A DNA stretch of 64,000 bases from Bacteroidota bacterium (lineage in GTDB: Bacteria > Bacteroidota > Bacteroidia > AKYH767-A > OLB10): assembly GCA_016722525.1 (NCBI GenBank), contig JADKJB010000016.1, positions 25,277 through 89,276 on the forward strand, read 5' to 3'. Of this stretch, positions 5,108 through 64,000 are shown one piece after another. How positions within the stretch are numbered: position 1 is the stretch's first letter; every line of letters begins with the position of its first letter. Under the pieces are notes generated by a model, which was given only the letters and a program-made list of their open reading frames with translations, was not told the DNA's origin and did no database searches. Both the position numbers and the translations under genes were made by a program.

Positions 5108-5169
5108 TTTTTTTCTAAAGTTTGTTGAATTTAATGCTTTGCATAAACTTTAGCCTAAGCTATAAGTGC

Positions 5170-5962
5170 CTACATTTCTTTAGATAAAAACCGATCCAAT
5201 TCTTCAGGCGAAATATTTGCTTTTAACTCACCATCCCTTGCTACTGAAATAGCTCCTGTTTCTTCTGAAACAATAATAGCGATCGCATCACTTTGTTCAG
5301 TAATCCCTAAGGCTGCTCTGTGCCTCATTCCATATTGCGCCGGAAGATCGGGGTTATCAGTAACTGGCAAAACACAGCGAGCAGCTTTAATCTTATTGTT
5401 CGAAATTATAATGGCTCCATCATGCATTGGACTATTCTTAAAAATATACTTTCGATAAGTCGCTTTGACACTTCCGCATCCATAATATCACCTGTGGAGG
5501 CGTAAAATTTCAGGTCCGAATTTCGCGAAATTACAATAATGGCACCTGTCTTGTTTTTTGCCATATTGGAACAGGCTTTTACAATAGGTGCAATGTTTGT
5601 TGCATCTTGTTTTTGAAATTGGAAATTCCATTTAAATAAGTTCCTGGCAAACGTGTTTTGTGCTAAAAAACTGTTAGTGCCCATAAGAATGAGAAAGCGT
5701 CGAACCTCTTGTTGAAAAACGATAATTAATGCAATAACCCCGACTCCTATAAATTGGCCGAGTAAAGCTCCATTAACTGCATGTCCAAAACTTTTACACA
5801 CAGCCACCAAAGAAGATAAATGGAGATGAGCCCGATAAAAATATTCATCGCAACCCCGCCTTTCAGCAGCTCGTAAAGTTTATAGAGTAGAAACGCTACT
5901 AAAAGGATATCCAGGATATCAAGTAATCGGACACTCAAAAATCCTATGTGAAAGATTTCCAT
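5170..5962 (-). CDS. cdaA: Diadenylate cyclase CdaA (two frameshifts)
   Basis: Three collinear ORFs. The N-terminal TM region is MEIFHIGFLSVRLLDILDILLVAFLLYKLY. DAC-domain motifs are HDGAIII and GMRHRAALGITEQSDAIAIIVSEETG. Confidence 0.85.
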
Positions 5963-6015
5963 GATGTAAAAATAGAAACAATAAAACTATTATTCATAAG
6001 AGACTTTCAATGCAT

Positions 6016-6597
6016 TCAATGAAATTCATCAATTAGGAAACGATAGGGCAGGAGCGCGTCACTTCCTGCGTAATCTACTCCAATTCGCGGAGTGACTTTT
6101 ATTTGTTCTGGACGAAACGAAATTCCTTTGTCTTCTATCCATATTTTATTTCCAAATAAACTTGTACCAGTCAAAGAATAGTCAATTCCTAATGCCTGAC
6201 TTACTTTGCCGGGACCATGAAATGATTTTTTGGTGTAAATAATCTGTTTTCTGCGTTGCAGCATGGTTTCTTCTCCTTCAAACGGCAAAACTGACCTGAT
6301 TAAAACCGCATGAGGTATATTTTCAACATTGGTAACTACATTCAATAAAGAATGCACTCCATAGCATAAGTAAATGTAGGCAACGCCTCCTTGCTGATAC
6401 ATTACAGATGTTCTGGATGTTCTTTTGCCTCCAAAAGCATGAGAAGCGCGGTCAGTTATCCCATTGTAAGCTTCGGTTTCAGTAATTATGCCGGCAGTAA
6501 TTAAGTTATTTTTGCAGGTAAATACAACTTTACCCAACAACAATTGAGCAATAGCAACAACATCATCGCCGCAATAAAAATCACTTTTCAGTTTCAT
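6016..6597 (-). CDS. DNA-3-methyladenine glycosylase (Mpg/AAG family)
   Basis: Intact 193-aa ORF with family-typical ITETEAY...DRASHAFGGKRTSRTSVMYQQGGVAYIYLCYGVHSLLNVV. Confidence 0.85.
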   Translation of the reverse strand: MKLKSDFYCGDDVVAIAQLLLGKVVFTCKNNLITAGIITETEAYNGITDRASHAFGGKRTSRTSVMYQQGGVAYIYLCYGVHSLLNVVTNVENIPHAVLIRSVLPFEGEETMLQRRKQIIYTKKSFHGPGKVSQALGIDYSLTGTSLFGNKIWIEDKGISFRPEQIKVTPRIGVDYAGSDALLPYRFLIDEFH

Positions 6598-8529
6598 TAT
6601 TTAGCTCAATCTCTGCTTTTAGCCTCCAATAACTCACCTTTTTATTATACTTCAGATATTCCTGATCAATCATCCAAGTGATCATTTCAAGTGCCTTTTT
6701 CGAATCATTAATTCCTGAGCGCTCCAACAAAGCCACCACATTCAAAGGTCCTTCATTTTTGAGGATGGAATTTATGTTAGTGCGAAAATTATCTAATTCA
6801 ATTTCATTAAATTCCTGTTTATTCAATTCTCGGCAATAATCGCACACGCCACACCTTGAAGTAGCCTTTTCGCCAAAATAATTCAATAAAATCATGCTTC
6901 TGCATAGGTGCTTTGAAGTCACATAATTTGCAACAGCTTCTGAACGCAGAATATACTTTTCCTTTCTTGCCAGGTATTTCTTTTCATCAATATCAATGTA
7001 TACAGCCTCTTCCCGTGGAGTGGTAAAAGTGAGTTGTGGAGAATCTTTGCGAGGCTCATAACTTAATATGTCATTTTTATGAAGATAGGTAAGCATACTC
7101 ACCACCTGATCATAGGTAATCTTTAACTTATTGGCCAGTTCAGGCTCACTAATTTTCACAAATTCATCAAATACACCTTCAGCTGAACGAAGAATTGTTT
7201 TTATGAGAATATCATACTTAAAATTAGTTACTTGAAAAGTATATAAATCGATATTGTTCACCTTAAAATGTACTCTTGAAGGAATAAAAACCGCATCAGA
7301 AACACTGATTAATCCCTCTGCTTCAAGAACTCTGAGACAACTCAAAGCAGTAATCGGATTGAAATTATAATTGGAAATAAACTTTGTAATTTCAAAATCA
7401 TAGCTGACGCCCATTCCTGAATCAACCGGCACTTGAAGGTAATTTGCTATTGCCTGATAAACATTTCGAATCTCTTTAATTGCCGGAAAAGAAGTTTCTT
7501 GCCGACGTTTCAAATCGGCTATATCTGTTTCATTATACAAAACAATTGCATAGGCAGTCTTTTCATCTCTACCAGCGCGTCCTGCTTCCTGATAGTAAGC
7601 TTCTGGGCTATCAGGCAGATCCATATGAATAACTGTACGCACATCAGGCTTATCAATACCCATCCCAAAAGCATTGGTGCAAACCATCACTCTTGTTTTA
7701 CCTGATTTCCATTGATCTTGCTTTTCATTCCTTAATTGAGCCGATAGTCCGGCATGATAAAAGTCAGCTGATATTTTATATTGTTGCAATAATTGAGCAT
7801 ATTCTCTGGTGCGTTTACGATTTCTGACATAAACTATTCCGGTGCCTCTTACTTTTGAAAAAATTTCAATCATTTTTCGCTGTTTATCTTCCATGTGATA
7901 GCACAAATAATTGAGGTTTTCTCTCGCAAATGACTTTTGAAATAAATGCTCTTTTTTAAAAGCCAGCTGCTTCATAATATCAGTTCTTACTTCAGGCGTG
8001 GCGCTCGCTGTAAGGGCAAGAATTGGTACTGATGGGTGGAGATCCCTAATCTCAGCAATTCGCATGTAGGAAGGTCTAAAATCATATCCCCATTGAGAAA
8101 TACAATGAGCTTCATCAATAGCAAAGAGGCAAACATTCATTTTCTGAATCCTTTCCCGGACTAAATCTGATAAAAGTCGTTCAGGTGAAAGATAAAGGAA
8201 CTTAAGATGTCCATAGATGCAATTATCTAAAGCAATATCTACTTCATCGCGACTCATTCCGGAAAAGACTGCAACCGCCTTTATTCCTTTTGCTTGCAAG
8301 TTCTCTACCTGATCTTTCATGAGGGCTATCAAAGGAGAAACTACTATGCAAATTCCTTCCATAGCCATCGCCGGCACCTGAAAACATACCGATTTTCCAC
8401 CACCTGTAGGTAATAGTGCCAATGTATCAATGCCATTCAGAACAGACTCAATGATATCTTCCTGCAAAGGCCTGGAAACGATCATGATTCCAATATTGCT
8501 TAAGAATACTGGCAGCTTTACTATACATA
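6581..8529 (-). CDS. recQ: RecQ-family ATP-dependent DNA helicase (N-terminal frameshift near 8480)
   Basis: Motifs PTGGGKS, DEAHCISQWGYDFRPSY, and Zn-binding cysteines CRSMILLNYFGE...CGVCDYC. The upstream frame gives MYSKAASILKQYWNHD, which joins FRPLQEDII, so the true start is the ATG at 8529. Confidence 0.85.
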
Positions 8530-8650: not shown

Positions 8651-8678
8651 AAAGGCCTACCATAGAAGGCAGGCCTTT
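8651..8678 (-). terminator. Intrinsic terminator of the histone-like gene
   Basis: Stem AAAGGCCT (8651-8658) pairs with AGGCCTTT (8671-8678). On the minus strand it is followed by CTTGTTTTAT, 24 nt after the stop codon. Confidence 0.6.
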
Positions 8679-8701
8679 CAGCATAATAGGTGACAAAAGA
8701 A

Positions 8702-9130
8702 TTATTTCTTCTTAGTAGCTTTCTTTTTAGTAGCAGCTTTTTTCCTTGGAGCAGCTTTCTTAGTAGCAGCTTTTTTAGTAGCAGCTTTTTTCTTAGGAGC
8801 AGCTTTCTTAGTAGCAGCCTTCTTCTTAGGAGCAGCTTTCTTAGCAGCAGCTTTCTTCTTAGGAGCAGCCTTTTTAGCTGACATAACTTTTTTAGCAGCT
8901 TTTTTCTTAGTAGCTTTCTTCTTAGTAGCAGCTTTTTTTTTAGGAGCAGCTTTCTTAGTAGCAGCTTTCTTAGTAGCAGCTTTTTTAGTAGCAGCTTTCT
9001 TTTTTGGAGCAGCTTTCTTCTTAGTAGCAGCTTTCTTTTTAGCAGCAGCCTTTTTCTTAGGAGCAGCTTTCTTTGCAGAAACAGACTTCGCTTTTGAAGC
9101 AGATTTCTTTACTGATTTTTTTTTCATCAT
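8702..9130 (-). CDS. Lys/Ala-rich histone H1/Hc2-like basic protein
   Basis: 142-aa ORF made almost entirely of degenerate KKAA(P/T)KKKAATKK repeats. It has its own terminator. The antisense ORF is a low-complexity shadow. Confidence 0.7.
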   Translation of the reverse strand: MMKKKSVKKSASKAKSVSAKKAAPKKKAAAKKKAATKKKAAPKKKAATKKAATKKAATKKAAPKKKAATKKKATKKKAAKKVMSAKKAAPKKKAAAKKAAPKKKAATKKAAPKKKAATKKAATKKAAPRKKAATKKKATKKK

Positions 9131-10713: not shown

Positions 10714-11538
10714 ATGAAGAAAAATAAATTTATATTTATAGTTACAATGTGCATGTTGATGTTCCTTGTTAACTCTTGCAGCAAATTTAGTAAGATTCAA
10801 AAGAGTACTGACATGGAAGCCAAATATACGGCTGCAGTTAATTATTATGATAAGAAATATTATTTTCAAGCTCTTCAGTTATTCGAAGAGTTAATCACTG
10901 TTTTCAGAGGGACCAGCAAAGCTGAGGATACTTACTTTTATTACTGTCAATGTTATTTCGAAACTGGTGAATATACAGTTGCTGCATATCACTTTAATAA
11001 GTTGAATCAAACATTTCCAAACTCATCCCGTGCGGAAGAAGCACTTTTCAAAAACGCTTTTTGTTATTACCTCGATTCACCTGTTTCATCACTCGATCAA
11101 AAAAATACTACAGATGCGATTCGTCAGTTCCAACTTTTTATTAATCGTTATCCGCAAAGCGAAAAAGTTGAAAAGTGTAATGGACTAATCGATGAGCTCC
11201 GCTTAAAACTTGAAACAAAAGATTTTAATAATGCTAAATTGTATTTTAAAACCGGAAACTTTAAAGCATCCATGTTCGCATTTCAAAATGTTTTGAAAAC
11301 GTATCCGGCTACAATATTTAAAGAAGATTGTCTGTATTATATTTTACGCTCTTCTTTTATATATGCAGGTCAGAGTGTGGAAGTGAAGAAGGCTGAGCGT
11401 TACAAAATCACTATTGAAAATTACTATAAATTGCTTGACGCATTTCCTACTGGAAAATATCTCAAAGAATCCGAAAAAATATTCCTCGAAGCCCAATCAC
11501 GCATCAAAAAGCTTGAAAAAGACGCTCAAGTCATATAA
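10714..11538 (+). CDS. bamD: Outer membrane protein assembly factor BamD (TPR lipoprotein)
   Basis: Lipoprotein signal MKKNKFIFIVTMCMLMFLVNSC and TPR-like helices. It sits in the conserved position upstream of rpoZ-coaBC. Confidence 0.75.
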   Translation: MKKNKFIFIVTMCMLMFLVNSCSKFSKIQKSTDMEAKYTAAVNYYDKKYYFQALQLFEELITVFRGTSKAEDTYFYYCQCYFETGEYTVAAYHFNKLNQTFPNSSRAEEALFKNAFCYYLDSPVSSLDQKNTTDAIRQFQLFINRYPQSEKVEKCNGLIDELRLKLETKDFNNAKLYFKTGNFKASMFAFQNVLKTYPATIFKEDCLYYILRSSFIYAGQSVEVKKAERYKITIENYYKLLDAFPTGKYLKESEKIFLEAQSRIKKLEKDAQVI

Positions 11539-48718: not shown

Positions 48719-49498
48719 ATGAAAAAATACATCCTTCTAGCCTTGCTATCCTCAATTGGCTTTACAGTACAATCTCAATCCCGATGGAATGTGGGGATTC
48801 AAACGGGTTGTGTTACCAACTTATCCAGATTCGATTCAGGAAATGAAGAAGCAAATGCCTTATTTAGCAACAACCCTTACAAATCGGCTCTGCTAGGTGT
48901 CAATTTCAGATATAAAATCAGTGACAAATTTTCATTTCAATCCGGATTTCACTTTACAGAATTCGGCTTCAGCTATGGAATGGCTAAAAACTACTCCTTG
49001 TTAAAACCGGAAAGCCGTTATTCAGATCTTTCTTCAAGCACATGCATTTCAAGTATTCCAGCATTAGTTGTTTTAAATACTCCTGTTAATTGTAATAATG
49101 TACGTTTCATTTTTGGAGCAGGGTTTGCAATTCGGGGAATTGATGATAAATGGGAAAGCGACAGCGAAGCTGAAATACCTGCTAACGAGGGAGCAAATGC
49201 CAAAACAACGTACATGAAGGCCCAATCCAAAACTGTAAATGGAGTTTCACCTGCCGCTACCTGGATAATAGGGTTTGAAAAAGTACTTTCAAGAGGAAAC
49301 ACTATGAGTTTTACCTTTCAGGGAACCCAAGGCTTCACTACAATAGCAGAATCAACCGTAAGTTATACTGCAGGCAATCAGGAGTATTCACATACGTTTA
49401 TTAATAGAGGCAGCTATGCAACTATGGCATTTGCTTACAATTTCAGTTCATTTGGAACTCGAAAAGCAAACAAATTGCTTAAAAATGCAATCAAGTAA
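48719..49498 (+). CDS. Outer-membrane beta-barrel (porin-family-like) protein
   Basis: Signal peptide MKKYILLALLSSIGFTVQSQ, alternating beta-strand pattern, aromatic-rich C-terminal strand (MAFAYNF). Confidence 0.5.
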   Translation: MKKYILLALLSSIGFTVQSQSRWNVGIQTGCVTNLSRFDSGNEEANALFSNNPYKSALLGVNFRYKISDKFSFQSGFHFTEFGFSYGMAKNYSLLKPESRYSDLSSSTCISSIPALVVLNTPVNCNNVRFIFGAGFAIRGIDDKWESDSEAEIPANEGANAKTTYMKAQSKTVNGVSPAATWIIGFEKVLSRGNTMSFTFQGTQGFTTIAESTVSYTAGNQEYSHTFINRGSYATMAFAYNFSSFGTRKANKLLKNAIK

Positions 49499-49525
49499 GA
49501 ATTAGTTTTTACTAATTATTAAAAA

Positions 49526-49561
49526 AGAGGAAGAACCAAAATAAATTTTGATTCTTCCTCT
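49526..49561 (+). terminator. Intrinsic terminator; last feature of the conserved region
   Basis: AGAGGAAGAA...TTCTTCCTCT stem followed by a T-rich tract. Confidence 0.6.
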
Positions 49562-49684
49562 TTCTGTTTCGATTCAATTTTTTTTTACACTTTTTATTCA
49601 TTTTGAACAGGGAACTTCCACCAAAGAGCATAAGAATGAAAAAGAGGCATTAATTGTACAAAGCTATGCCCTGTTATTCAAAAG

Positions 49685-49731
49685 TGATTCCGAAGCGACT
49701 CGAACGCTTGACCTTCTGCTTTTCAGGCAAT
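49685..49731 (-). other. 3' half of tRNA-Phe(GAA) (positions 27-73): att-like remnant
   Basis: Reverse complement reads ATTGC-CTGAAAA-GCAGA-AGGTC-AAGCG-TTCGAGT-CGCTT-CGGAATC-A. That is an anticodon arm, a 5-nt variable loop, a canonical T-arm, a 3' acceptor strand and a discriminator. No D-arm or 5' acceptor strand lies upstream. Confidence 0.75.
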
Positions 49732-49739
49732 CCACCAAA

Positions 49740-49934
49740 ATGGGAGTCAAAGGCACTTCACAGGCTTATATTCTTGGAAACGGTAGGAAGCACTTTAGAG
49801 TGCAATTTTGGGCTATGTTCTGCAGAATATTTAATATTGAAGCTGGGGTGTTGAATGGGGTGGATTTGAGGGAAACATTATTATTCCAAGAAAAAATACT
49901 AAAAACAGACGAATTGTCCGCATTTTTCATCTGA
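49740..49934 (+). CDS. Conserved small ORF (64 aa) in cassette leader A
   Basis: MGVKGTSQAYILGNGRKHFRVQFWAMFCRIFNIEAGVLNGVDLRETLLFQEKILKTDELSAFFI. Comparison with copy B shows coding-like substitutions (synonymous AGA/CGG and TTG/CTA). The stop is followed 14 nt later by a hairpin terminator. Confidence 0.45.
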   Translation: MGVKGTSQAYILGNGRKHFRVQFWAMFCRIFNIEAGVLNGVDLRETLLFQEKILKTDELSAFFI

Positions 49935-49948
49935 ATGCCATTTTGTCT

Positions 49949-49990
49949 CAGGGTTTACCCCTAGGGGGAAACCTGTGTTTTGTGATTTTT
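49949..49990 (+). terminator. Intrinsic terminator inside the leader (copies also at 54476-54517 and 60364-60405)
   Basis: CAGGGTTT(A)CCCC / GGGGAAACCTG stem followed by TGTTTTGTGATTTTTTG. It is conserved in all three leaders. Confidence 0.65.
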
Positions 49991-50081
49991 TGTAATAGTT
50001 ATGAATTTCATGTTTACAATTACATGTAGCTATTTTTCAATCAGCTAATTTCAGTTAAAATTAACCTTTAATCCGTGTAAT

Positions 50082-52009
50082 ATGAAAACAACTTATTCCA
50101 AATTAATCATGTTGGTTGCCTTTTTGATATTTTTTCAAATGGAAGGCTTCTCCCAAACATTAACTTTAACACCCTCCAACTTTAATGGTTATAATATCAG
50201 TTGCTTTGGTAGCGCAACAGGAAGTGTTAATCTGACTATTTCAGGAGGCACACCACCATACACTATTGAATGGAGTAATGCGGCCACCAGCGAGGATCTC
50301 AGTAATGTCCCTGCGGGCTATTATCGTGTCAGCGTTGATGATGCTGACACCTTAACAGAGGCCGTGGATGCAGAAATAACTTTAACAGAACCTGAGCCAC
50401 TCCAAATCGGGGAAGCCTATCCTTATGTTTATCAGAACGGTTACAATGTTAGCTCTTATGGAGCATGTAATGGAAGTATTATTCTTGATGTTAAAGGGGT
50501 GTTGCCCCATATACTTATTTATGGGAACCGGGTCAGCAAACTATTGCGAACCCGTCTAATTTATGCTCTAATGAAAATCAAGTAATTGTTACAGATGCAA
50601 ACGGCTGTGCTATTGCAAACGGAATAGGATTGAATGAACCTCAAAGAGATGACTGGACCATGAATGGAAATTACAATTCTGATCCTGCGACACAGTTTAT
50701 TGGTACAATAGATAATAAAGACGTCTCATTTCGGACAAATAATTTAGAGAGATTCAGAATAAAATCAGATGGCAAAATTTCAATGAGTACGTTCAGTGGT
50801 GCAGGATCTAAAATAGTGTATGCAGATAGTTTGGGAGTATTAAGATCATTTTCTTTTCTTTTATCTACTTGTTTGCCTCGGTCTCCAATTATCGCTTGGC
50901 AGGCGAATCCTGCAATTCAAAATAAAGTATTTGCATGTGGAATTGATTTTGGAATTGGAACATATAGCCCCAGAGAAAAACTGGAAGTAAAAGGAACCGT
51001 ATTAGTTACTTCATGGGATAATTCCCTAAATAATATGTCAGATTACCTCCAACTTAAACACGATGGTGTAAATGCACGAATAGAAAGCTTTGGTACAGGC
51101 GATTTATTGTTGAATAATGGAAATCCAAGAAATGTGAAAGTTAATTTGGGCAATGGGTCAGGATATTTTGAAACAGGAAATAATACATATTTGGCCACAG
51201 AAAGTGGAAATGTTGGAATTGGTATAAGTACACCTAATTACAAATTGGATGTAAATGGTAATATAAATTATACGGGAGAATTATATAAAAACGGAACATT
51301 AATATCAGATGCTTTTTGGTCTACTACCACTACCGGTATTAATTTTGGTTTAGGAAATGTGGGTGTAGGGACATCTAATCCTATAGAAAAATTTCAAGTC
51401 AATGAAGGAGCAATTTCTGCTGTAATTGGATCTGCAGAAGGTCAAGGCCTAGATTATGGAACATGCTATTTTGGAATGAACGCCATTCGAACAGGTATGA
51501 ATAGTTGGATAAGCTCAACTGATGGCATACATAACGGAGGTACAATACTTTTTGGAAGTATTAGCGGTGATTTTAATATTGCAACTATCCCGAGTTGTGA
51601 ACCCAATTGCAATACGGATTTAATTTACGATAACAACTTTATTCAAGACAATACTAGCTTTAAAATCAGAGCTTCAGACGGTCATATTTCTATGGGAGGA
51701 AACCCTCATAATGATTATAAACTAAATGTATGTGGAGGTATAATAACTAATAAAGTTAGAGTACCTGCAATCTGGTGTGATTATGTCTTTGAAAAAGGTT
51801 ATGAATTAATGTCAATTGATAATTTGAGGCAATTTGTAGAAACTAACAAACGTTTACCAGAAATACCATCACAGAAGGAGATTGAGAGCAATGGTGTGGA
51901 TGTCGGTTCTATGCTGACATTACATATGAAGAAAATCGAAGAATTAACTTTATATGTTCTTGAGTTAGAGAAAAGAATTAATGAGTTAAAAAATATATCA
52001 AATGAATAG
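50082..52009 (+). CDS. Secreted SprB-repeat / tail-fibre-like protein A1 (one frameshift in the G-run at 50496-50499)
   Basis: Signal peptide, two SprB-type repeats (NISCFGSATGSVNLTISGGTPPYTIEW and NVSSYGACNGSIILDVKGG.APYTYLW), fibre-like GNVGIG..NP..KL.V.G motifs, and a C-terminal WCDYVFEKGYELMSIDNLRQFVETNKRLPEIPS module with a coiled coil. Confidence 0.65.
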
Positions 52010-52637
52010 TCTGAAACTTAACTTTATTCCAATTTTTGTCATCTTTTTGTATTCTAGCCAAACTTACAGCCAAGACTCAACTTCATCAATAATAAATTCA
52101 AGTAAGTACAAAATATCAGCTAATGTTTCATTTGAAAGAAGCGGAACTGAAAGTTATGAAGCTCCTCGAGATTTCCAAATTGTAAATAATTTTGGAATCG
52201 CTATTAGTAAGAAAATTTCTAAGCGTTTTTGGATTGAATTTAATCCTCAGTTAATTAAACACAAAACTAAGATTTTCTTGGACTTATATGGGGATTATCT
52301 TGAGTATTCTTTTATATCGGATAATATTAGAATTCCAATTAATTTAGAAATGTATTTAAAATCTTTTTATTTTAAGGTTGGGCCATTTTGCGATTTCTTA
52401 ATAGATATAAGATCTGATTCAAATACTAATTTTAATGCTTATAATGTTAATGATTTTACTTATGGAATTGCTGCTGCCACTGGAATGGAGAATCGAATTT
52501 ATAAAAATCTTTATTTGTTTGTTGAAGTGAGATATAATCAAGTATTAAACACCTCCATTTACCCAAAAAATAATAAGAGTTATGAAGGTCGATTTGTTAA
52601 TTACGGGTTTAATATAGGTTTGTGTATTTATTTATAA
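52002..52637 (+). CDS. Small outer-membrane beta-barrel-like protein A2
   Basis: 211 aa with a signal peptide and an alternating-strand pattern ending NYGFNIGLCIYL. Its start overlaps the A1 stop by 8 nt. Confidence 0.45.
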   Translation: MNSLKLNFIPIFVIFLYSSQTYSQDSTSSIINSSKYKISANVSFERSGTESYEAPRDFQIVNNFGIAISKKISKRFWIEFNPQLIKHKTKIFLDLYGDYLEYSFISDNIRIPINLEMYLKSFYFKVGPFCDFLIDIRSDSNTNFNAYNVNDFTYGIAAATGMENRIYKNLYLFVEVRYNQVLNTSIYPKNNKSYEGRFVNYGFNIGLCIYL

Positions 52638-52648
52638 AAAAATCAAAT

Positions 52649-54135
52649 ATGAAAAAATGGATTTTTGTTTTATTAATTTTTGTGGCTGGTAAGCAAGGGT
52701 ATTCACAATGGAATCTTATTAGGAATTCTAGCTTTGAACATTTAATCCCAGGACAATCATTAAATAATAATTGCCTAGGGGTGTTACAGAAGATGTTTTA
52801 TTATGGAAACAGGCAAATGACAATCATGATTTTAAATTTGGAACACCAGATTATATGGATGAACAATGCAATGAAAAAGAACCAGGTATAATTTATTCAG
52901 GTGAATCTTCTAAATTTATTTATTTGGAGGTTCAACACGATGGTAATGGGACCCATCCTTCGCATAATGATAAAAATGATGCAATCCAAGCAGGTTTGAT
53001 TTCTACTCTATATCAAATCCATAACTATGTATTTAAAATCATGTATATTGGAGTGCCTCCCAAATATGGTTCAAATATTTCATATGGAGATACACGAATG
53101 AGAATGTGGCTGTCAAAATATAGCGAACATTGGAATAGTTCATGGGGGAATGTCATTTATTCTCGTGTTATGTATCCCCCTCATATGATTAATCCGCAAG
53201 AATGGATTGAACACACTCTTTTTATTGATGGTCCAAATGATGGTGCTAATTTTTCACAGCTTAAAAATTTAACAATAGGTGCAGAAGAAGGTCAATTTTA
53301 TGTTGAATCAGTTGAATTAAGTGAAATTTGTGCACCAATACATTATATCCAAGATCAACATTTCTTTAATGCTCAAGATGGAATTCCACATAAGGCAGCA
53401 AATGTGTTAATTGCAGGAAGTAATACAGGAGCCCCTCATCTTATCGGTGATGTGGTTATCCACCCAGGTGCAAATGTTACTTTTAAAGCGGGGATTGGAC
53501 CTTTTGATTTTATTGATATTTTAGGTGTTGATATACAGGCAGGTGCTAATTTTGAAACTTTTTTTGAACCTTGCGATAATTCTGTAGTAAGACAGGAATA
53601 TGACACCACAGAAGTTTTTCGAATGGATGATTCGATAGAATATATGGAGTGTGGTGACACTTTAATTATTAACGGTTTAGATGGTGATACAACCACGAAC
53701 ATAAATTATTTTTGGGATTTGGGTAATGGAGATACATTATCTTCACCTACAGTAAATTATATTTATCCAACAAGTGGAACATATTTAGTAACCCTTGTAC
53801 TTACTGATTCTCTAAATCATAAAGACACACTTTCCAAAACATACGTTGTGCCTTCTTGTAGGATTTCAGGATCTCAAATAATTGCAGAATATCAGCCTGA
53901 AATAAAAGTATTTCCAAATCCTTCAATCGGTTTAGTAAATATAAATTATACGCTGAAAGATAAAAATTATTTGTCTTATAGTGTATATGACCCAACTGGA
54001 CGGGTAATAATAAATAAATCAAGAGAATACTTTAGTGATTTTCAAATTCAATTGGCAGACGAAGGAGTATATTTCATAAAATTTGAATTTGAGGATAAAA
54101 GTATTTACTTCAAAAGGATTGTAATAACAAAATAA
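52649..54135 (+). CDS. Secreted PKD-domain protein with a T9SS sorting domain, A3 (one frameshift ~52770)
   Basis: Signal peptide MKKWIFVLLIFVAG, PKD motif YFWDLGNGDTLSSPTVNYIYPTSGTYLVTLVLTD, and CTD IKVFPNPSIGLVNINY...GVYFIKFEFEDKSIYFKRIVITK. Confidence 0.65.
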
Positions 54136-54245
54136 TTAATTAGGAATAGACCCCAAATACTGGATTCTGTAAGATCCTTAACATGAATCTACTACATAAA
54201 ATATCTCAGTTTTTTTGAGATATAGACGTGATCAGTATGAGAGAA

Positions 54246-54608
54246 CTTTTCAGGCAGACCACCAGAATGGGGATCAAAGGCAAATCACAGGCATTTTTGC
54301 AAGAGAATGGTAGGAAACATTGTATTTTGCTATATCTAACTATGTTTAGCCGGATATTTAACATTGAACCTGGGATGCTAATAGGGGTTGATTTGCGGGA
54401 GATTTTTTAATCCCAAGAAAAAATACTAAAAACAAACAAATTGTCCGCATTTTTCATCTGAATACCATTTTGTCTCAGGGTTTCCCCTTAGAGGGAAACC
54501 TGTGTTTTGTGATTTTTTGTAATAGTTATGCATTTCATGTTTACAATTACATGTAGCTATTTTTCAATCAGCTAATTTCAGTTAAAATTAACCTTTAATC
54601 CGTGTAAT
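54246..54608 (+). repeat. Cassette leader, copy B
   Basis: Collinear with 49719-50081 without indels. It lacks the T-arm/acceptor part of the tRNA remnant; homology starts at CTTTTCAGGCA, the anticodon-loop sequence. Confidence 0.85.
54267..54461 (+). pseudogene. Small leader ORF, copy B, with an in-frame TAA at 54408-54410
   Basis: MGIKGKSQAFLQENGRKHCILLYLTMFSRIFNIEPGMLIGVDLREIF(stop)SQEKILKTNKLSAFFI. Same length and frame as copies A and C. Confidence 0.4.
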
Positions 54609-56325
54609 ATGAAAACAACTTATTCCAAATTAATCATGTTGGTTGCCTTTTTGATATTTTTTCAAATGGAAGGCTTCTCCCAAACATTAACTTTAACACC
54701 CTCCAACTTTAATGGTTATAATATCAGTTGCTTTGGTAGCGCAACAGGAAGTGTAAATCTGACTATTTCAGGAGGCACACCACCATACACTTTCGAGTGG
54801 AGTAATGCGGCCACCACTGAAGATCTTACCAATGTCCCTGCGGGCTATTATCGTGTCAGCGTTGATGATGCTGATACTTTGACATCCATTGTCGAAGCCG
54901 AAATCACGCTAACACAACCGGAACCACTTGAGATCGGAGAGGTTCAGCCGTACGTATATCCAAACAATTATAATGTTAGCCAGTTTGGTGCTTGCCATGG
55001 TACTATCCAAATCAATGTTTCAGGTGGAGTTGTTCCCTATGACTATGCTTGGAGTCCAGGACAACAAACGGTTTCTAATCCAACTAATTTGTGTTCCCCG
55101 CCAAAACACAGTGTTGCTAACCGATGCCATCGGATGTAAGACCTCTGCAAGTGTGCTTTTAAGTGAGCCGGAGCGCGACGACTGGATTATGAATGGTAAT
55201 TTCAGTTCTAATCCCGCCACACAATTTATTGGCACCAGAGACAGCGTGAAACTACTTTTCAAAACCAACAATCAGGAGCGCATGAGTATTGCTGCAGATG
55301 GGCAGTTTAGGATTAACAAACTGGGTGGCACGGGATCTCGTTCGTTGATGGTTGATTCACTAGGGAAGTTGATTGCAGCTCCTGCTCTTAGTTGGATGAC
55401 AAATGGTAATTTTCTCGGTGGTAATGAGTTTATCGGATCCACCAATAGTAAAGATCTGGTTTTTAAAACTTCCGGCATGACAAGAATGAAAATAAAATCA
55501 AATGGCAAAATATCAATATCAGAATTTGAAACTACTGCTAATGGAATTCTTTACACCGACTACTTAGGAGAAATTTGGAAACTTGATTTTGACCCATCAC
55601 AACCAGCATTATTCTTAGATGCTTCAGGAAATTTCACAGCATTACCAACAGGTAGCAATGCCTGGAGTTTGAGTGGACAAACCGTTTACAACCTGCATTC
55701 AGGAAATACAGGAATTGGAATAGCGAACCCTGCTTACAAATTTCATGTTGTGCATGATCCGGGAACTTCTTCAAGTGGAGGAATTATAGTGGAAAGCAAT
55801 AATGCGAACAATGCCAATAGTGAAATTAAGTTTAAGCATGCGGGAAATGATCAATGGTCAATAGGGAGTAATGTTCAACACAACTCTACAAGAAACTTTT
55901 TCATTTATGATAATTCCATTTCACCGGTGGGCGAGACTCGTTTTTATATTGATGGTGATGGACGGATTGGCATTGGTGTGATCCCACCCACAACTTGGCC
56001 TTCACAGAGTGCAGAGTATCGATTGTATGTTGAAGGAGGCATAATGACCCGTGATGTTAAAGTTACTGCCCAAAATCCCTTTCCAGATTATGTGTTCGAA
56101 GGTGACTATGATTTAATGACCATTACAGAGTACGGTAATTACTTAAAAAAACACAAGCATTTACCCGGCATTCCAACAGCTGCCGAAATTGAGGAGCAAA
56201 AAGGATTTGAAGTAGGTGATATGCAAGTAAAACTCCTCGAAAAAGTAGAGGAACAAGCACTATACATTGTGGACTTGCAGTGGCAATTAAATGAAATAAA
56301 GGCTCAACTTAACATCAAAAAATAG
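54609..56325 (+). CDS. SprB-repeat / tail-fibre-like protein B1 (one frameshift; C4 run at 55096-55099 versus C3 in copy C)
   Basis: Same architecture as A1. The C-terminal module is FPDYVFEGDYDLMTITEYGNYLKKHKHLPGIPTAAEIEEQKGFEVGDMQVKLLEKVEEQALYIVDLQWQLNEIKAQL. Confidence 0.65.
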
Positions 56326-56330
56326 TAGCT

Positions 56331-58538
56331 ATGAAAACATACATACTTTTAAGTGTTTTGTGTATCTTTATACTAAATACGCAAGGCCAAACACCACCTC
56401 AAGGTTTTGTGACTCTGAAGGGCAGACAGTTTTATGATGGAAATGGATTGCCGTTTTATCCGTTGTTGATGAATTATTCTCTAGAATATCAACATGATAA
56501 TGCACAAAATGGTACACATTGGCTTAATAAATCATGGGAATATGGAACAGATGATGATGGTTTGAGACTAATAATTTTTGGCAGCTCAAATTGAAATCAT
56601 GAATGATTTGCATCAAATAAAATTGATGGGATTTAATATGGTCCGGCCTGATTTTACTGCGGAGTGGGATACTGATGTAAATCAGTTTTATTTAAAAGGT
56701 CGAACATACGGAATCCAAACAACCCGGCAGATCCGAATAACCATTCCAGTCAAGAAAGGAGAATTTGGTTTGATCAACCATCATTGGCAACAGACCCTAA
56801 TTTCATTGAGTATTTATATTATTTAGATTGGTTTATATCAATGGCTGGCAATGAGAACATGTACACTATGCTTAATGGTGCATTAGGGGACGTTTCAGAT
56901 CCACTGGCATATAATAGATATTTGGAATTTCTGGATTTGTTAGGAAAAAGATTCAAGGATAACAAGTGGTTGGCATTTTACGATATTTTAAACGAACCAT
57001 TATATAAATATAAATATGCGCATGCTGATGGAGATATAAATTTTTATACTAAAAAGCAAGCATGTGAATTGGTTGAAGATTTTTATAATGCCCTTAAAAA
57101 TCCAAATGCAGACCCCAACCACCTCGTTTCTGGCGGAAATTTAGTTACAGAAGATGTCATTTTGTTTGACCCTTCTTTAATGAAACTGGATTTTAGTCAA
57201 CCACACCTATATTCTGAAAAATTTATTTCATACGATGGCATGAACCTGACTAACAAGATTAACAGAGTGAATGGAAGCACATATTGGGTCTACAAAAACA
57301 TACCAATGCCATGGATAAACGGCGAAACCGGTTTTCCTTCATCGGATGTATTTCCAATAGGAGTTAATCTCGTTGCAGGAACAAATCAGGACCAAAAAAC
57401 TTATGCTGATAATATTCTTTCCTCCACACGTGATCATGGAGGAAGTGGATTTACATGGTGGAATTTCCAGGATGGAGCATGGGAAGAATATGGAACCGAA
57501 ATATTTGGATATGGTTTATTAATCTTAGAATCAGGAATTGATAAACCTGCAGTGAATTCATTTCAAAGCTATCTTGATCCATCAACAAACCAACCTCCCC
57601 AATGAGTACAATCGTTCCCAGTGAACCACCTAATTTCCAGGGATCCTTATGTGAACAAATTGTACAATCCAAATGAAACAGGAGCTGTTACAGGCACAGT
57701 TTTAGATGAAAACGGAAACGGAATTGAGAATGCCTGGATTGTGGCAAAGAATTATTTAAAAATAAACCAAACTACTAGTTATGCTGATTGTAGTTGGATT
57801 TACACCTATACAAAAATAATGGCAATTTTAAATTGATACCATTTAATAATGAACCAACAAATGATCACAGAATCACTTATTTAATAGGTTCTGCAATGGG
57901 AGTTGAAAGCTTTCACTCGGGTATAAATGATGGGACTCAGATGGCAAACCCTCCTCCTTTCACACTTAAGCAAAATAAATTTGAATACGATGCGATTGTT
58001 GAATCTGATGTACCCATTTCAGAAGAGATAAATTTTAAAGGCTGGAATTCTCTTACCATGAATAATTCAAAACTGGAAGGAATTTCAACATTAAATGCAA
58101 GAGAAGTCATTAATTTACATGATGGTTTTCATGCAACGCAAACAAGCGAAGTGCATATCTTTCCTGCCGAAACATTTGCAGTTTGTAACGATTACACTGA
58201 TTATACGATTCATTTTGCAACGTGAATCTCAAACCAATCATTCAAATTCAAATATTGTAGACACAAAAAATATTGAGATAAAATTTTCAAAGGCCAAAAT
58301 TTCAATTTTTATTCAACCGAATCCTACCACTGGTTGTGTTACTGTAAAATTAACAAATGATGAAAATCTTGACAACAAAAAATTGATAGTAAGAAACATG
58401 ATTGGTGAAAATTTGAAAGAAATTATTTTCATTGGAAATGAAACCGTATTTAATTTAACAAATTTACCCAAAGGAATTTATTTAATTGAAATGAATTCGG
58501 ACCAAAAACAACTTATTAGCAAACTAATTTTAAACTAA
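56331..58538 (+). CDS. GH5-like (clan GH-A) glycoside hydrolase with a CarboxypepD_reg-like domain and a T9SS sorting domain, B2 (about 5 frameshifts)
   Basis: Six collinear ORF fragments. Motifs GFNMVRP, YDILNEP (acid/base NEP), WINGETGFP (nucleophile). CTD IFIQPNPTTGCVTVKL...GIYLIEMNSDQKQLISKLILN. Confidence 0.6.
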
Positions 58539-58543
58539 TCAAA

Positions 58544-59971
58544 ATGAAAAAAATAATTCAAATAGTTATGGCACTATGTCTATTGCCTTTATTTTCGCTA
58601 TCACAATGGCAATGGGGCAAACAATTTGGTGGAAATTCATTTAATGCTCCTCATGATGTACCTTTAAGTCTTTTAACTGATGGTAATAATTCATTTACAA
58701 TTGGATTTTATGGCGGCCCCTTACACATGCCCGATGACACATTGCCCTCAAATGGAATTAATCAAATATTTATTACAAAATTTAATACATCTGGCACCCA
58801 AATATGGGCTCAATCATTAGGTGGTAACTATAATCAATTTCTGGATTATGAATACGGTGAAGGAGTTATTGATAATAATTCGAATTCAATATTTCTTACA
58901 GGCATTGTAATAGGCGATGTTTCGTTTGGTGGAATTACTTCTTATAGCAGTTCCGGACTTGGAGATATTTTTTTAACAAAAATGGATTTGAATGGAAACT
59001 ATGTTTGGGTTGATCGAATAATAACATCAGGGAAGATCTATCCAAAATATTTATCAGTCCTTTGGAAAATATATCTCATCACTCAAACGGAAGATTCTTC
59101 TCAATTTGGAAATTTTAATTTGCCACCCGAGGTGGGAATAATACAATATGATACTGCAGGAAATTGTTTGTCTGCTGAGTATTATACACCTTCACAGCAA
59201 CCCAGTTTAATAATAAAATATGTAAGATTTATTAGAAAGTGACATATTTTATTTTGGAAGATTTCAAACCACTTCTTTCCAACTTGACACCTTCAACCTA
59301 ACAAACCTCGGCACCTCCGATGCCTTTCTTGCCCGGGCCGATTCTAATGGAAATGTTAAATGGGTAAAGCAATTTGGTAATGCAGGAGCCGATTACATTG
59401 AAGATATGGCCATCAGTAATAATTATCTGTATGCCATCGGTGGCTTTCAGGATTCCATTAATTTTGGCGGAACTTCTTTGTTCAACAATGGAAAAGATGT
59501 ATTTATACAAAGTTTGACACTTCAGGTAACACCATTTGGGCACGCAACTTATTTTGCACCGGTGCCACAAGTTCAGGCAACAAAATAGTGGTCGATAATG
59601 ATGGCAACACATATGTTACTGGTTCCTTTTCAGGAACAGCCTCGTTTGGTAATTTTCAACTCACTACCACCAACCCATCCGATATGTTCCTTGCCAGATA
59701 CGATTCGGCAGGAAACTGCCTGGGAGTGAAAAATTTCGGGCATGCCAGCGGAAATTGTCTGGCAACCGATAGCAACGGAGATGTGGTTGTAGCAGGAACA
59801 TTTAACAATACCGTTACCATTGGTTCCAACACCTTAACCAGCTATGGCGGCAGATTGGAAATGAATGATGGAACTATCAAAGTTGAATTAGAGGCTCAGG
59901 CGAAGGGTGTTTATAGTATTACTCTGGGGAATGGGAAGAGGGTGTTTTCTGGGAAGATGGTTATTGAATGA
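58544..59971 (+). CDS. SBBP-type beta-propeller repeat protein B3 with a truncated sorting domain (about 3 frameshifts)
   Basis: Signal peptide. Repeats of the type DIFLTKMDLNGNYVW, DAFLARADSNGNVKWVKQFG, DMFLARYDSAGNCLGVKNFG. Only the distal half of a CTD remains (GVYSITLGNGKRVFSGKMVIE). Confidence 0.6.
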
Positions 59972-60099
59972 TGTCATATTGTTTAAAAAGCATAATAATC
60001 AGGATGAATTTACAATCAAAAACACTACTTGTTTAAACCATTGATTATACCAAGCTAAAAAAATAATTGAAAATGGTTGTCACTATTTGAAAATAAAAG

Positions 60100-60146
60100 T
60101 GATTCCGAAGCGACTCGAACGCTTGACCTTCTGCTTTTCAGGCAAT
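60100..60146 (-). other. Second copy of the tRNA-Phe(GAA) 3' half remnant
   Basis: Identical 47-nt sequence to 49685-49731, in the same orientation. Confidence 0.75.
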
Positions 60147-60154
60147 CCACCAAA

Positions 60155-60349
60155 ATGGGAGTCAAAGGCACTTCACAGGCTTATATCCTTGGAAACGGTA
60201 GGAAGCATTTTAGAGTGCAAATTTGGGCGATGTTCTGCAGAATATTTAATATTGAAGCTGGGGTGTTGAATGGGGTGGATTTGAGGGAAATATTATTATT
60301 CCAAGAAAAAATACTAAAAACAGACGAATTGTCCGCATTTTTCATCTGA
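60155..60349 (+). CDS. Conserved small ORF (64 aa), copy C
   Basis: Differs from copy A at a handful of positions and keeps the same stop and terminator. Confidence 0.45.
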   Translation: MGVKGTSQAYILGNGRKHFRVQIWAMFCRIFNIEAGVLNGVDLREILLFQEKILKTDELSAFFI

Positions 60350-60496
60350 ATGCCATTTTGTCTCAGGGTTTACCCTTAGAGGGAAACCTGTGTTTTGTGA
60401 TCTTTTGTAATAGTTATGCATTTCATGTTTACAATTACATGTAGCTATTTTTCAATCAGCTAATTTCAGTTAAAATTAACCTTTAATCCGTGTAAT

Positions 60497-62209
60497 ATGA
60501 AAACAACTTATTCCAAATTAATTATGTTGGGTGCCATTTTGATATTGTTTCAAATGGAAGGATTCACACAAACATTAACTTTAACACCCTCCAACTTTAA
60601 TGGTTATAATATCAGTTGCTTTGGTAGCGCAACGGGAAGTGTAAATCTGACTATTTCAGGAGGCACACCACCATACACTATTGAATGGAGTAATGCGGCC
60701 ACCAGCGAAGATCTCAGTAATGTACCTGCGGGCTATTATCGTGTCAGCGTTGATGATGCTGATACTTTGACATCCATTGTCGAAGCCGAAATCACGCTAA
60801 CACAACCTGAACCACTTGAGATCGGAGAGGTTCAGCCGTACGTATATCCAAACAATTATAATGTTAGCCAGTTTGGTGCTTGCAATGGAACTATCCAAAT
60901 CAATGTTTCAGGTGGAGTTGTTCCCTATGACTATGCTTGGAGTCCAGGACAACAAACGGTTTCTAATCCAACTAATTTGTGTTCCCGCCAAAACACAGTG
61001 TTGCTAACCGATGCCAACGGATGTATGACCTCTGCAAGTGTGCTTTTAAGTGAGCCGGAGCGCGACGACTGGATTATGAATGGTAATTTCAGTTCTAATC
61101 CCGCCACACAATTTATTGGCACCAGAGACAGCGTGAAACTGCTTTTTAAAACCAACAATCAGGAGCGCATGAGTATTGCTGCAGATGGGCAGTTTAGGAT
61201 TAACAAACTGGGTGGCAGGATCTCGTGCGTTGATGGTTGATTCACTTGGGAAGTTGATTGCAGCGCCTTCTCTTAGCTGGATGACAAATGGTAATTTTCT
61301 CGGTGGTAATGAGTTTATCGGATCAACCAATAGTAAAGATCTGGTTTTTAAAACTTCCGGCCTGACAAGAATGAAATTAAAATCAAATGGTAAAATTTCA
61401 ATATCAGAATTTGAAACTACTGCTAATGGAATTCTTTACACCGACTACTTAGGAGAAATTTGGAAACTTGATTTTGACCCATCACAACCAGCATTATTCT
61501 TAGATGCTTCAGGAAATTTCACAGCATTACCAACAGGTAGCAATGCCTGGAGTTTGAGTGGACAAACTGTTTACAACCTGCATTCAGGAAATACAGGAAT
61601 TGGAATAGCGAACCCTGCTTACAAATTTCATGTTGTGCATGATCCAGGAACTTCTTCAAGTGGAGGAGTTATAGTGGAAAGCAATAATGCGAACAATGCC
61701 AATAGTGAAATTAAGTTTAAGCATGCGGGAAATGATCAATGGTCAATAGGGAGTAATGTTCAACACAATACACAATGAAACTTTTTCATTTATGATAATT
61801 CCATTTCACCGGTGGGCGAGAACCGTTTTTATATTGATGGTGAAGGACGGATTGGGATTGGTGCGATCCCACCCACAACTTGGCTTCACAGAGTGCAGAG
61901 TACCGATTGTATGTTGAAGGTGGCATAATGACCCGTGATGTTAAAGTTACCGCTCAAAATCCCTTTCCAGATTATGTGTTCGAAGGTGACTATGATTTAA
62001 TGACCATTACAGAGTACGGCAATTACTTTGAAAAACACAAACACTTGCCCGGCATTCCAACAGCAGCAGAAATTGAAGAGCAACAAGGATTTGAAGTAGG
62101 TGATATGCAGATAAAGCTACTTGAAAAAGTTGAGGAACAAGCAAGGTATATTGTAGATTTACAACGGCAATTAAATGAAATAAAGGCTCAACTTAACATC
62201 AAAAAATAG
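60497..62209 (+). CDS. SprB-repeat / tail-fibre-like protein C1 (2-nt deletion ~61217, in-frame TGA at 61776-61778, 1-nt deletion ~61893); possibly a true pseudogene
   Basis: Collinear and highly similar to B1 over its whole length. The lesions were identified by direct comparison with B1. Confidence 0.6.
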
Positions 62210-62214
62210 TAGCT

Positions 62215-64000
62215 ATGAAAACATACATACTTTTAAGTGTTTTGTGTATCTTTATACTAAATACGCAAGGACAAACACCACCTCAAGGCTATGTGACTCT
62301 GAAGGGCAGACAGTTTTATGATGGAAATGGAAATCCGTTTTATCCGTTGATGATGAATTATGAAATGGAATATCAGTATGACAATAGTTTTACCAATCAC
62401 TGGTTGAATAAATACTGGGAATATGGTATAGAAAATGATGGATTTGAAAATACTAATTCTATTGATGCTGAGAATGAAATAATTTCAGATCTTACTATTA
62501 TAAGAAATATAGGATTCAATATGGTAAGACCTGAATTTACACCGAAATGGGATCCAGTTTTGAAAGAATTTTATTTACGAGGTCGTACATATGGTGATCC
62601 GTCAGTTCAATATAACCTAGATAGTGACGATGCCAGAACCTATTTTGATCAACCTTATGCAACGAATCAAGCTGTTTTAGAATATTTTACATATATGGAC
62701 TGGTTCATTGATCAGGCAGGACAAAATAATATGTACACCATGTTGAATGGTGTTTTAGGTGATGTTACCGATCCTGATGCATTTATTCCTTATAAAGAAT
62801 ATCTTGACTTATTAGGCAAACATTTTAAATTTAATACTTGGCTCGCGTTTTATGATATTATAAATGAACCACAATATGTATATAATTATGCCTATTCAAC
62901 ACCTCAATATAGTAAAATGCAAGCATGTGAATTGGTTGCTGAATATTACGATGCCTTAAAAGATGACAATGCAGATCCAAATCATCTCGTCTCGGGAGGG
63001 AATTTGGTCACTGAAGATGTTACTTTGTTTGACCCTTCATTATTAAAATTAGATTTTAGTCAGCCACATTTATATTCTGAAAGTTATACTACTTATGATA
63101 ATTGCAACTTAACAAATAAAATTAATAGAATAAAAGGAAGTACCTACTGGTTTTCAAAAAATATTCCAATGCCATGGATAAATGGCGAAACAGGATTTCC
63201 TTCTTCTGATGACCCGCAATATCCCAAATGTAATGATTTAGTTTGTTTAGTTGCCGGATCAAATGCCGATCAACAATCCTATGCGGAACAAATTTTACAA
63301 AATACACGAGATAGCAAAGGCAGCGGTTTTGTATGGTGGGTTTTTCAGGATGGAGCCTGGCCCGATCATGGAAATGCGCTTAATGGGTATGGATTGTTGA
63401 CCCTTGAAACTGGAGCGCCCAAACAAGCTGTAACCACTTTTGCAAATTATTTGGACCCAAATAATAATTATCAGCCTCCTCCTGCAAGTGCTACCTTGCC
63501 AGCAGAACCAGATAACTATAGGGACCCATATGTTAACAAACAATTCAACCCAAATGAAATTGGAGCCGTTACTGGAAGAGTCTTGGATGAGACCGGAAAC
63601 GGAGTTGATAATGCTTGGGTAACAGCAAAAAATTATTTGTACGTTGATTATAGTCTTCCACAACCTGAAATTGTTTGTTCATGGATAAATACGTATACAG
63701 ATCCAGATGGGTATTTTAAAATTATTCCATTGAACACTACAGATTTCATGGATCCATAGAATCACCTTATATAAGAGGTTCAGCAATGGGGCAGAAAGTT
63801 TTCATGCAGGAATTAATGATGGTACACAAATGGTAAACCCGTCTGATGTCACGCTTAAAAATATTAAATTTGAATATGATGCTTTTGAGGAAGTAGCTGT
63901 TGCAATTTTAGACCAGAGAAATTTTAAAGGTTGGAATTCTTTAACAATAGCAACTCAAAATTGGAAGGAGAATCACAATTAAATGCCAGAGAGAAATTAA
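62215..64000 (+). CDS. GH5-like glycoside hydrolase paralogue C2 (intact for 514 codons, frameshift ~63755, continues past the window end)
   Basis: Motifs GFNMVRPEF, YDIINEP, WINGETGFP and GAVTGRVLDETGNGVDNAW. The first ~125 nt are near-identical to B2, then the sequences diverge. Confidence 0.65.

Follow-up and report, generated by a model that had tools for sequence, protein, structure and literature searches.

Genes for tRNA-Arg(UCU) serve as prophage attachment sites in enterobacteria (argU, DLP12). Islands can also form tandem arrays, and in streptococci integrase-less cis-mobilisable elements (CIMEs) accrete beside integrative elements. Displaced 3′ fragments of tRNA genes (tDNA) mark the ends of islands, a principle on which the Islander algorithm is built (PMC4383910). 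The attachment (att) sites involved are commonly centred on either the anticodon or the T-stem, with position 27 being the usual start of those centred on the anticodon (PMC4383910). The 10K island of Riemerella anatipestifer, for example, adjoins an Arg-tRNA, and has a working tyrosine integrase and flanking direct repeats (PMC6764341). Here we describe a 47-nt tRNA-like sequence in a 64,000-nt stretch of an uncultured Bacteroidota bacterium (contig JADKJB010000016.1, positions 25,277 to 89,276 of the forward strand; the whole stretch is called the window). It lies at positions 49685–49731 of the window, at the left edge of an array of cassettes (A, B and C) that encode cargo proteins of the type IX secretion system (T9SS). 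We conclude that the feature is a further example of a well-known type of recombination scar, and we consider it reasonably probable that recombination left here the displaced 3′ part of a tRNA-Arg(TCT) gene, with the regenerated gene lying beyond the window and a second copy of the fragment having been formed later.

The plus strand of the 47-mer is TGATTCCGAAGCGACTCGAACGCTTGACCTTCTGCTTTTCAGGCAAT, and its reverse complement is ATTGCCTGAAAAGCAGAAGGTCAAGCGTTCGAGTCGCTTCGGAATCA. On the minus strand it parses as ATTGC-CTGAAAA-GCAGA-AGGTC-AAGCG-TTCGAGT-CGCTT-CGGAATC-A, that is, tRNA positions 27–73, exactly as a preliminary description of this DNA had reported. The variable loop, T-arm, 3′ acceptor strand and discriminator are all intact. 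A dispersed repeat or MITE would be marked by many copies at unrelated loci. There are two copies in the window, both within the array, and elsewhere the viral, genome and metagenome collections contained only true tRNA-Arg genes; a 21-nt sub-pattern of the 47-mer, with up to 3 mismatches allowed, likewise matched the window twice, where 0 matches are expected. The second copy, at the head of cassette C, is the one announced in the preliminary description, and it agrees at 47/47 positions. The sequence is trustworthy, because L006, an independent assembly of the same species from JGI sample 3300049487, has the 47-mer in the same form as both window copies.

The 47-mer is not a functional tRNA gene, as it has no 5′ half and is called by neither ARAGORN nor Rfam; its earlier description as a remnant is correct. 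ARAGORN gave no tRNA at either copy, its sole call in the window being a tRNA-Lys at 355–428, and Rfam at the gathering threshold found the same single tRNA-Lys gene. The 27 nt upstream of the fragment match a tRNA 5′ half at 7/27 positions. A search of the whole window for the tRNA-Arg 5′ half, allowing up to 3 mismatches, found none, and for this reason the idea of a split or permuted gene was also rejected. The Rfam tRNA model, run as a local search by E-value, gave 49685–49742 a score of 19.2 bits (E = 0.24), short of the gathering score of 29. Taken by itself, such a score for the global tRNA alignment would be compatible with a chance resemblance; however, that explanation is refuted by the agreement with genuine tRNA-Arg(TCT) genes at 42/47 positions (30/30 in the 3′ portion) and by blastn matches to intact tRNA genes of 91% identity across 46–47 nt (E about 1e-13), and we give it practically no credence.

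The key question about the fragment is which tRNA gene was its parent. The preliminary description had named tRNA-Phe, and two scans bear directly on this claim. In a scan of one genome per species (185,579 species) with the 25-mer comprising the T-arm, acceptor and discriminator, there were three matches, all in metagenome-assembled genomes (MAGs) of Bacteroidaceae and all intact tRNA-Arg(TCT) genes according to ARAGORN. A metagenome scan used a 43-nt pattern in which the anticodon and position 43 were left free; its five matches were again all intact tRNA-Arg(TCT) genes, and none had the anticodon GAA. Across the two collections, then, the intact tRNAs sharing the T-arm, acceptor and discriminator of the fragment are tRNA-Arg(TCT) in 8/8 cases. 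The best Bacteroidota matches in a BLAST search of PLSDB were replicons of Prevotella and Phocaeicola, and ARAGORN identifies tRNA-Arg(TCT) at both.

Alignment with the Bacteroidaceae tRNA-Arg(TCT) locates the differences. Positions 44–73 are identical (30/30), and the five differences in the 47 nt are C28T, the anticodon (TCT to GAA at 34–36) and T43A. All five of the mismatches thus fall within positions 27–43 and none in 44–73, a clustering whose probability by chance is 0.004. T43A disrupts the 27–43 pair, and the changes at 28 and 43 weaken the anticodon stem. The acceptor strand CGGAATCA and the C that follows it are invariant in the tRNA-Arg(TCT) of five Bacteroidota lineages, and the T-stems and anticodon stems of Bacteroidota tRNA-Arg(TCT) vary by compensatory changes. 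The fragment matches the tRNA-Arg(TCT) of a syntenic relative (L005) at 35/47 positions; the T-stem differences are compensatory, and the acceptor, the variable loop and 4/5 bases of the 3′ anticodon-stem strand are the same.

Because of the 8/8 isotype matches, the complete identity of the 3′ portion and the invariant acceptor strand, the 47-mer derives from tRNA-Arg(TCT), and not from tRNA-Phe. The anticodon TCT is not retained, and we read the GAA at 34–36 as part of a diverged arm rather than as a sign of another parent. The pattern of mismatches, with an identical core beside a diverged arm, is that of an att-type junction and not of uniform decay. It is nonetheless understandable that tRNA-Phe was proposed, with an integrase crossing over in the anticodon loop and an intact tRNA-Phe at the right: the loop CTGAAAA has U33 and a purine at 37, the fragment begins at the position usual for anticodon-centred att sites, cassette B retains only positions 29–39 around that loop, and a few phage tRNA-Phe genes weakly match the anticodon arm (E = 0.4). 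However, no tRNA-Phe with this 3′ half turned up in either collection, although the metagenome scan put no constraint on the anticodon, and the portions shared with the L005 gene are those of an Arg isotype, as is the tRNA at the syntenic position in L005. The broken 27–43 pair would also be unexpected in a copy of a working tRNA. A tRNA-Phe parent is accordingly very unlikely. An isotype call based on the apparent anticodon of a tRNA fragment can therefore mislead, and here it would direct a search at the wrong gene.

The position of the fragment provides the second line of evidence. Contigs of relatives were located through homologues of the 259-aa protein encoded just to the left. Synteny with L004 and L005 (tblastx) and with L012–L017 (gene order) ends just after this gene, and its right-hand neighbour differs by lineage: TPR/OmpA, folD and ffh in L004 and L014–L017; a TonB-dependent receptor in L012; an ATPase and T9SS cargo genes in L013; and in L005 a Kelch T9SS cargo gene, followed by tRNA-Arg(TCT), tRNA-Pro(TGG) and tRNA-Ser(GCT), all on the minus strand. 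In the independent assembly of the same species, where the flank protein is 99% identical, the identical 47-mer occurs at the same place, and after it come a fourth leader variant and a cassette that is A-like but diverged. Because synteny with every relative examined stops just left of the fragment, the core/accessory boundary placed there by the preliminary description is real; the locus is strain-variable, and the fragment is its fixed landmark. The description had further reasoned from the orientation of the fragment that the parent gene should lie to the right. This logic holds in L005, whose flank protein is 76% identical and in which an intact tRNA-Arg(TCT) is located on the minus strand ~2.8 kb to the right of the ortholog. 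The CTTTT that ends the repeat shared by cassettes A and C also trails the intact tRNA-Arg(TCT) of L005.

The start in the anticodon stem, the 3′ core joined to a diverged arm, the break in synteny and the orientation toward a gene at the right together form the pattern characteristic of tRNA gene fragments that have been displaced by recombination in the gene's 3′ part. The sequence shows the nature and parentage of the fragment, its place at the synteny break, its two full copies and one partial copy, the mosaic structure of cassette C and the lack of an integrase between 49.7 and 64 kb; that an integrase caused the insertion, where the intact gene lies and how the second copy came about are inferred. 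We regard the following history as the most likely. In an ancestor, the 259-aa gene would have had a minus-strand tRNA-Arg(TCT) as its immediate right-hand neighbour, which probably stood at the head of an Arg-Pro-Ser tRNA cluster as in L005. The DNA that now carries the tandem paralogous T9SS cargo cassettes would have entered through recombination at the 3′ part of this gene. The distal (left) junction would have kept the fragment, consisting of tRNA-identical 3′ sequence and a diverged, element-derived anticodon arm, and the regenerated tRNA gene would have been pushed to the right, past the end of the window. The second fragment would, on the simplest account, have arisen later by recombination at or through the repeat within the array. 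There are two possible routes: (i) unequal exchange in which the fragment paired, as a direct repeat, with a further copy of the tRNA 3′ sequence, duplicating a unit of the array; or (ii) a second site-specific event. With either route, exchange among the conserved 5′ ends of the cassettes would have followed.

The fragments, cassettes and neighbouring features are listed in Table 1. The domain content of the window points to a Bacteroidota genome, with a G+C content of about 36%.

Table 1. Positions of the tRNA-derived fragments, cassettes and flanking features in the window.
Feature	Position	Strand	Description
Last gene syntenic with relatives	48719..49498	+	259-aa protein, possibly an outer-membrane beta-barrel
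Hairpin, 19-nt arms	49524..49563		Between the 259-aa gene and the fragment
CTTTT trailer	49680..49684	-	Directly 3′ of the discriminator; second copy at 60095-60099
Fragment copy 1	49685..49731	-	tRNA positions 27-73; diverged anticodon arm (pseudo-anticodon GAA, A27-A43 mismatch)
Leader copy A	49732..50081	+	Upstream of the ATG of the SprB-repeat gene; equivalents at 54257-54608 (B) and 60147-60496 (C)
Leader small open reading frame	49740-49934, 54267-54410, 60155-60349; L006 940-1083		MGVKG...NGRKH...RIFNIE.G.L.GVDLR
Cassette A	50082..54135	+	ATG at 50082; SprB-repeat N-terminus, then PKD domain, then T9SS C-terminal sorting domain; frame split into four open reading frames
Partial fragment, cassette B	54246..54256	-	tRNA positions 29-39 only; CTTTTCAGGCA, TGCCTGAAAAG
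Cassette B	54609..59971	+	ATG at 54609; SprB-repeat N-terminus; T9SS sorting domain at 58095-58538; no mobility gene
Fragment copy 2	60100..60146	-	47/47 identical to copy 1; heads cassette C
Cassette C	60497..64000	+	ATG at 60497; runs off the window end; mosaic of A and B

The open reading frames (ORFs) of the cassettes start with SprB repeats and end with PKD and/or Por_Secre_tail (type IX secretion sorting) domains. Cassette B is ended by SBBP beta-propeller T9SS cargo gene fragments (58544–59971), and the product of 54609–55139 is identical to the public protein P0027. The identity between A and C runs from 49680/60095, 5 nt past the tRNA end, into the ~400-nt leader and the start of the ORF (leader repeats 49680–50081 and 60095–60496), its outer limit being the trailer (AAAAG on the plus strand). 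Leaders A and C are 94–100% identical (98% overall); that of B is 60–86% identical distally and 92–100% near the ATG, and its homology to the other leaders begins only at 54246. To the left of the partial fragment in cassette B there is unrelated sequence, just after the terminator hairpin of the last gene of cassette A. The leader was found only in this species. By sliding identity, cassette C is A-like from 60095 to ~60736 and B-like (96–100%) from ~60737, and the identity between B and C falls along the gene from 98% to 76%. Because C is a mosaic of A and B and the B–C identity decays along the gene, the cassettes can be said to exchange their 5′ ends. Cassette A is shifted by 2 nt relative to the intact ORF in L006. 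The broken cassette ORFs are probably assembly indels and not pseudogenes, because housekeeping genes of the window are likewise split by frameshifts relative to their orthologues in L004 (37900–46700: phosphoglucomutase, which has 469 aa in L004, an aminotransferase, RF3 and ribH).

A number of points weigh against a displaced tRNA-Arg(TCT) fragment and must be set beside the evidence in its favour. Pfam, NCBIfam and PHROGs searches of 49.7–64 kb revealed no mobility gene, whether integrase, transposase or other; this region holds T9SS cargo genes and fragments of such genes only. No intact tRNA-Arg(TCT) was seen in the window, which ends at 64000 inside cassette C. The G+C content of the array is the same as that of the core and gives no hint that the DNA is foreign. 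Three scans of viral and provirus contigs, with the 25-mer, a 21-mer of the GAA arm and a pattern from the start of the leader, returned 0 contigs, and the only BLAST matches in phage genomes were weak ones to tRNAs of various isotypes (E >= 0.01). With regard to parentage, the fragment has a T-stem, AAGCG/CGCTT, unlike the one in L005, the closest relative for which there are data, and all three anticodon bases depart from TCT, which the present evidence leaves unexplained. The parent was judged on the tRNAs of other genomes, and the loci compared contained no Bacteroidota tRNA-Phe. Finally, cassette B is without the 3′ part of the fragment.

Several of these points suit an alternative in which no mobile element is needed: an old scar, or a truncated native tRNA-Arg, could have been carried along by segmental duplication and gene conversion in a T9SS cargo family. 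Cassettes A, B and C are paralogues with a common leader and N-terminus, C is a clean A/B mosaic, and the decay of B–C identity is typical of 5′-biased gene conversion. The lack of mobility genes in the array and its core-like G+C content are in keeping with this explanation, and the variation of the flank gene's right neighbour in every lineage would mark the site as a general rearrangement hotspot. On the other hand, a random endpoint would rarely land within 5 nt of the end of a tRNA, and an A/C identity that ends there is what would be expected if the repeat itself was the recombination substrate. Gene conversion alone is also insufficient for cassette C, because there is no homology further left through which the 40 nt absent from B could be imported, and truncation of a native gene leaves five changes in 17 nt beside none in 30 nt unexplained. 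Duplication of this kind is a possibility to be taken seriously, although we think it rather unlikely.

If a site-specific event at a tRNA-Arg(TCT) gene did produce the fragment, the location of the crossover may be considered. The preliminary description observed that the homology of cassette B ends within the anticodon-loop sequence (54246–54256), and took this to be the crossover position. The observation itself stands, in that only positions 29–39 are kept. Tyrosine recombinases, however, require identity in the overlap region, and the parent loop CTTCTAA differs from the fragment loop CTGAAAA at 3/7 positions. Crossover in the anticodon loop is for this reason weakened, and on the sequences compared it seems doubtful here; a crossover located 3′ of position 43 agrees better with where the mismatches lie. 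The end of cassette B fits a situation in which the part 5′ of approximately position 40 belongs to the arm on the cassette side, and its breakpoint is not tied to a known crossover site.

A more dynamic possibility is that the fragments are live attachment sites, at which an integrase encoded beyond the window or elsewhere excises, captures and reorders integrase-less T9SS surface-protein cassettes at the tRNA-Arg locus. We regard this as unlikely. If it were true, the array would be somewhat integron- or CIME-like, generating strain-level variation in surface adhesins, and the altered pseudo-anticodon would be part of the element's own site.

It has also to be considered whether the tRNA-like piece is a selected part of the leader, acting as the recombination site of cis-mobilisable cassettes, as a promoter or regulatory element, or as upstream context for a small ORF. 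The 47/47 identity in A, C and L006, while the adjoining leader drops to 62–86%, would favour such a role, as would the direct fragment repeats that bracket A and B like the att sites of a cis-mobilisable element. In addition, a small ORF of 47–64 codons begins with an ATG 9 nt after the fragment in 4/4 leaders, with no indels and with a weak third-position excess of changes (11/11/20). That excess is not significant, however, and the small ORF had no match in Pfam or PHROGs and no homologues other than the same species' own copies. Cassette B manages without the 3′ 34 nt of the fragment, and the conservation in L006 also fits adjacency to a core flank that is 99% identical. A structured RNA on the minus strand (49680–49935) was rejected, since it folds no better than shuffled controls (z = -0.05) and Rfam gave only sub-threshold noise. 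Taken together, a selected function in the leader seems quite improbable to us. The small ORF was also examined as a relic of a mobility gene, and this was likewise rejected for want of a family match or of homologues outside this species. The leader ORF of copy A, used as a query, has a 97% identical match in the public protein P0146, which is taken to be the 90-aa ORF at 60077–60349.

Other features of the leader can be noted separately. On the minus strand there is a terminator-like hairpin with a T-run at 49905–49921. A palindromic hairpin, GGTTTACCCCTAGGGGGAAACC, is found at 49952–49973, and is followed by T-rich sequence on the plus strand, ~100 nt before the ATG; its stem differs slightly among copies A, B, C and L006. 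The palindromic hairpin could be an attenuator or a protein-binding site. A relative of the cassettes in another genome (P0033, 66% identity; L018, L019) is without the shared leader, a tRNA or the fragment. In L018 a complete IS66 (TnpB and DDE transposase, 4774–6980) directly precedes the SprB-repeat gene, and a second, partial IS66 (271–981) is nearby among T9SS cargo genes. The IS66 near the L018 SprB gene illustrates another way in which loci of this kind can become variable. Far to the left in the window, at 8657–9097, there are ~18 overlapping repeat copies with a 15/18-nt periodicity, which probably represent a short peptide repeat within a coding region.

The neighbourhood of the boundary has additional peculiarities, both in the window and in relatives. 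The hairpin between the 259-aa gene and the fragment has a position that fits a bidirectional terminator for that gene and for the former tRNA locus. The spacer between the flank-gene terminator and the fragment contains ~50 nt (49607–49656) that are extra compared with L006 (~855), and the 9-mer TCCACCAAA occurs both inside this insert (49617–49625) and directly after the fragment (49731–49739). In L005 (5780–5861 and 5960–6098, minus strand), tRNA-Pro(TGG) is followed after ~30 nt by a partial copy of itself, in which the end of the D-arm and positions 44–76 are conserved and the anticodon stem-loop is swapped for a different stem-loop. Also there, tRNA-Ser(GCT) is followed ~80 nt on by a copy of its own 3′ end with ~10 nt of trailer. 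The Arg-Pro-Ser cluster of L005 looks like a hotspot for scars of tRNA-directed recombination. In L004, the region right after the orthologous flank gene (10800–11200) has ~7 tandem copies of a G+C-rich unit of ~60 nt (AAAAACCGGCCTCCGTAATCATCGACACACGCTGACCCGAAAAGCGCCTAAG), standing where cassettes or tRNAs would be. In one of the Bacteroidaceae MAGs (L001, 1–110) the contig terminates in a perfect palindrome whose centre is the terminator downstream of tRNA-Arg(TCT). The tRNA 3′ end thereby recurs in inverted form at the contig end, which has the look of an assembly artefact of the fold-back type rather than of a biological feature.

How, then, does the locus compare with the systems introduced at the outset? 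It resembles the displaced 3′ tDNA fragments of islands and prophages (Williams 2002; PMC4383910) in its start in the anticodon stem, its orientation, the synteny break, and the identical 3′ core with a diverged arm. It is unlike them in that the variable DNA within the window has no mobility genes and a host-like G+C content, and in that the loop differs from that of the parent. Islander looks for a fragment at a conserved/variable boundary, and such a boundary is where this fragment lies. It further expects an intact cognate tDNA in the same replicon and orientation beyond the island, and a tyrosine integrase gene within the island. A gene of the expected kind and orientation is seen in L005; 49.7–64 kb contains no integrase, and the integrase-proximal end, beside the intact tRNA, would fall outside the window. 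The algorithm counts a tandem array only if each member has its own integrase (PMC4383910); here there are two fragments with no integrase between them (49732–60099), and the locus falls outside that definition. As in tandem arrays and CIMEs, two direct att-like copies bracket an integrase-less unit, A plus B, and related DNA is present after the second copy. The difference is that the repeat extends more than 400 nt into the shared leader, and because of this the second copy is explicable without an integrase, through homologous exchange. The Riemerella anatipestifer 10K island (PMC6764341) shares with our locus its occurrence in the Bacteroidota, an Arg-tRNA locus and direct repeats around the inserted DNA; it differs in having a demonstrated tyrosine integrase, a 53-bp repeat that is located beside and downstream of the tRNA and is unrelated in sequence, and other cargo. 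The likeness to the enterobacterial argU/DLP12 pair is by isoacceptor alone, the isoacceptor being the same and the phylum unrelated.

Finally, we note that the value of the analysis is mainly corrective, in that tRNA-Arg(TCT) replaces tRNA-Phe. The corrected reading predicts that the remainder of the contig contains a minus-strand tRNA-Arg(TCT), after which tRNA-Pro and tRNA-Ser probably come; an integrase may or may not be present. For the biology of this uncultured Bacteroidota bacterium, the fragment defines the left limit of an array of T9SS surface-protein genes that varies between strains. If the fragments are active recombination sites, which nothing we have seen requires, the array would provide cassette-style diversification of secreted adhesins.

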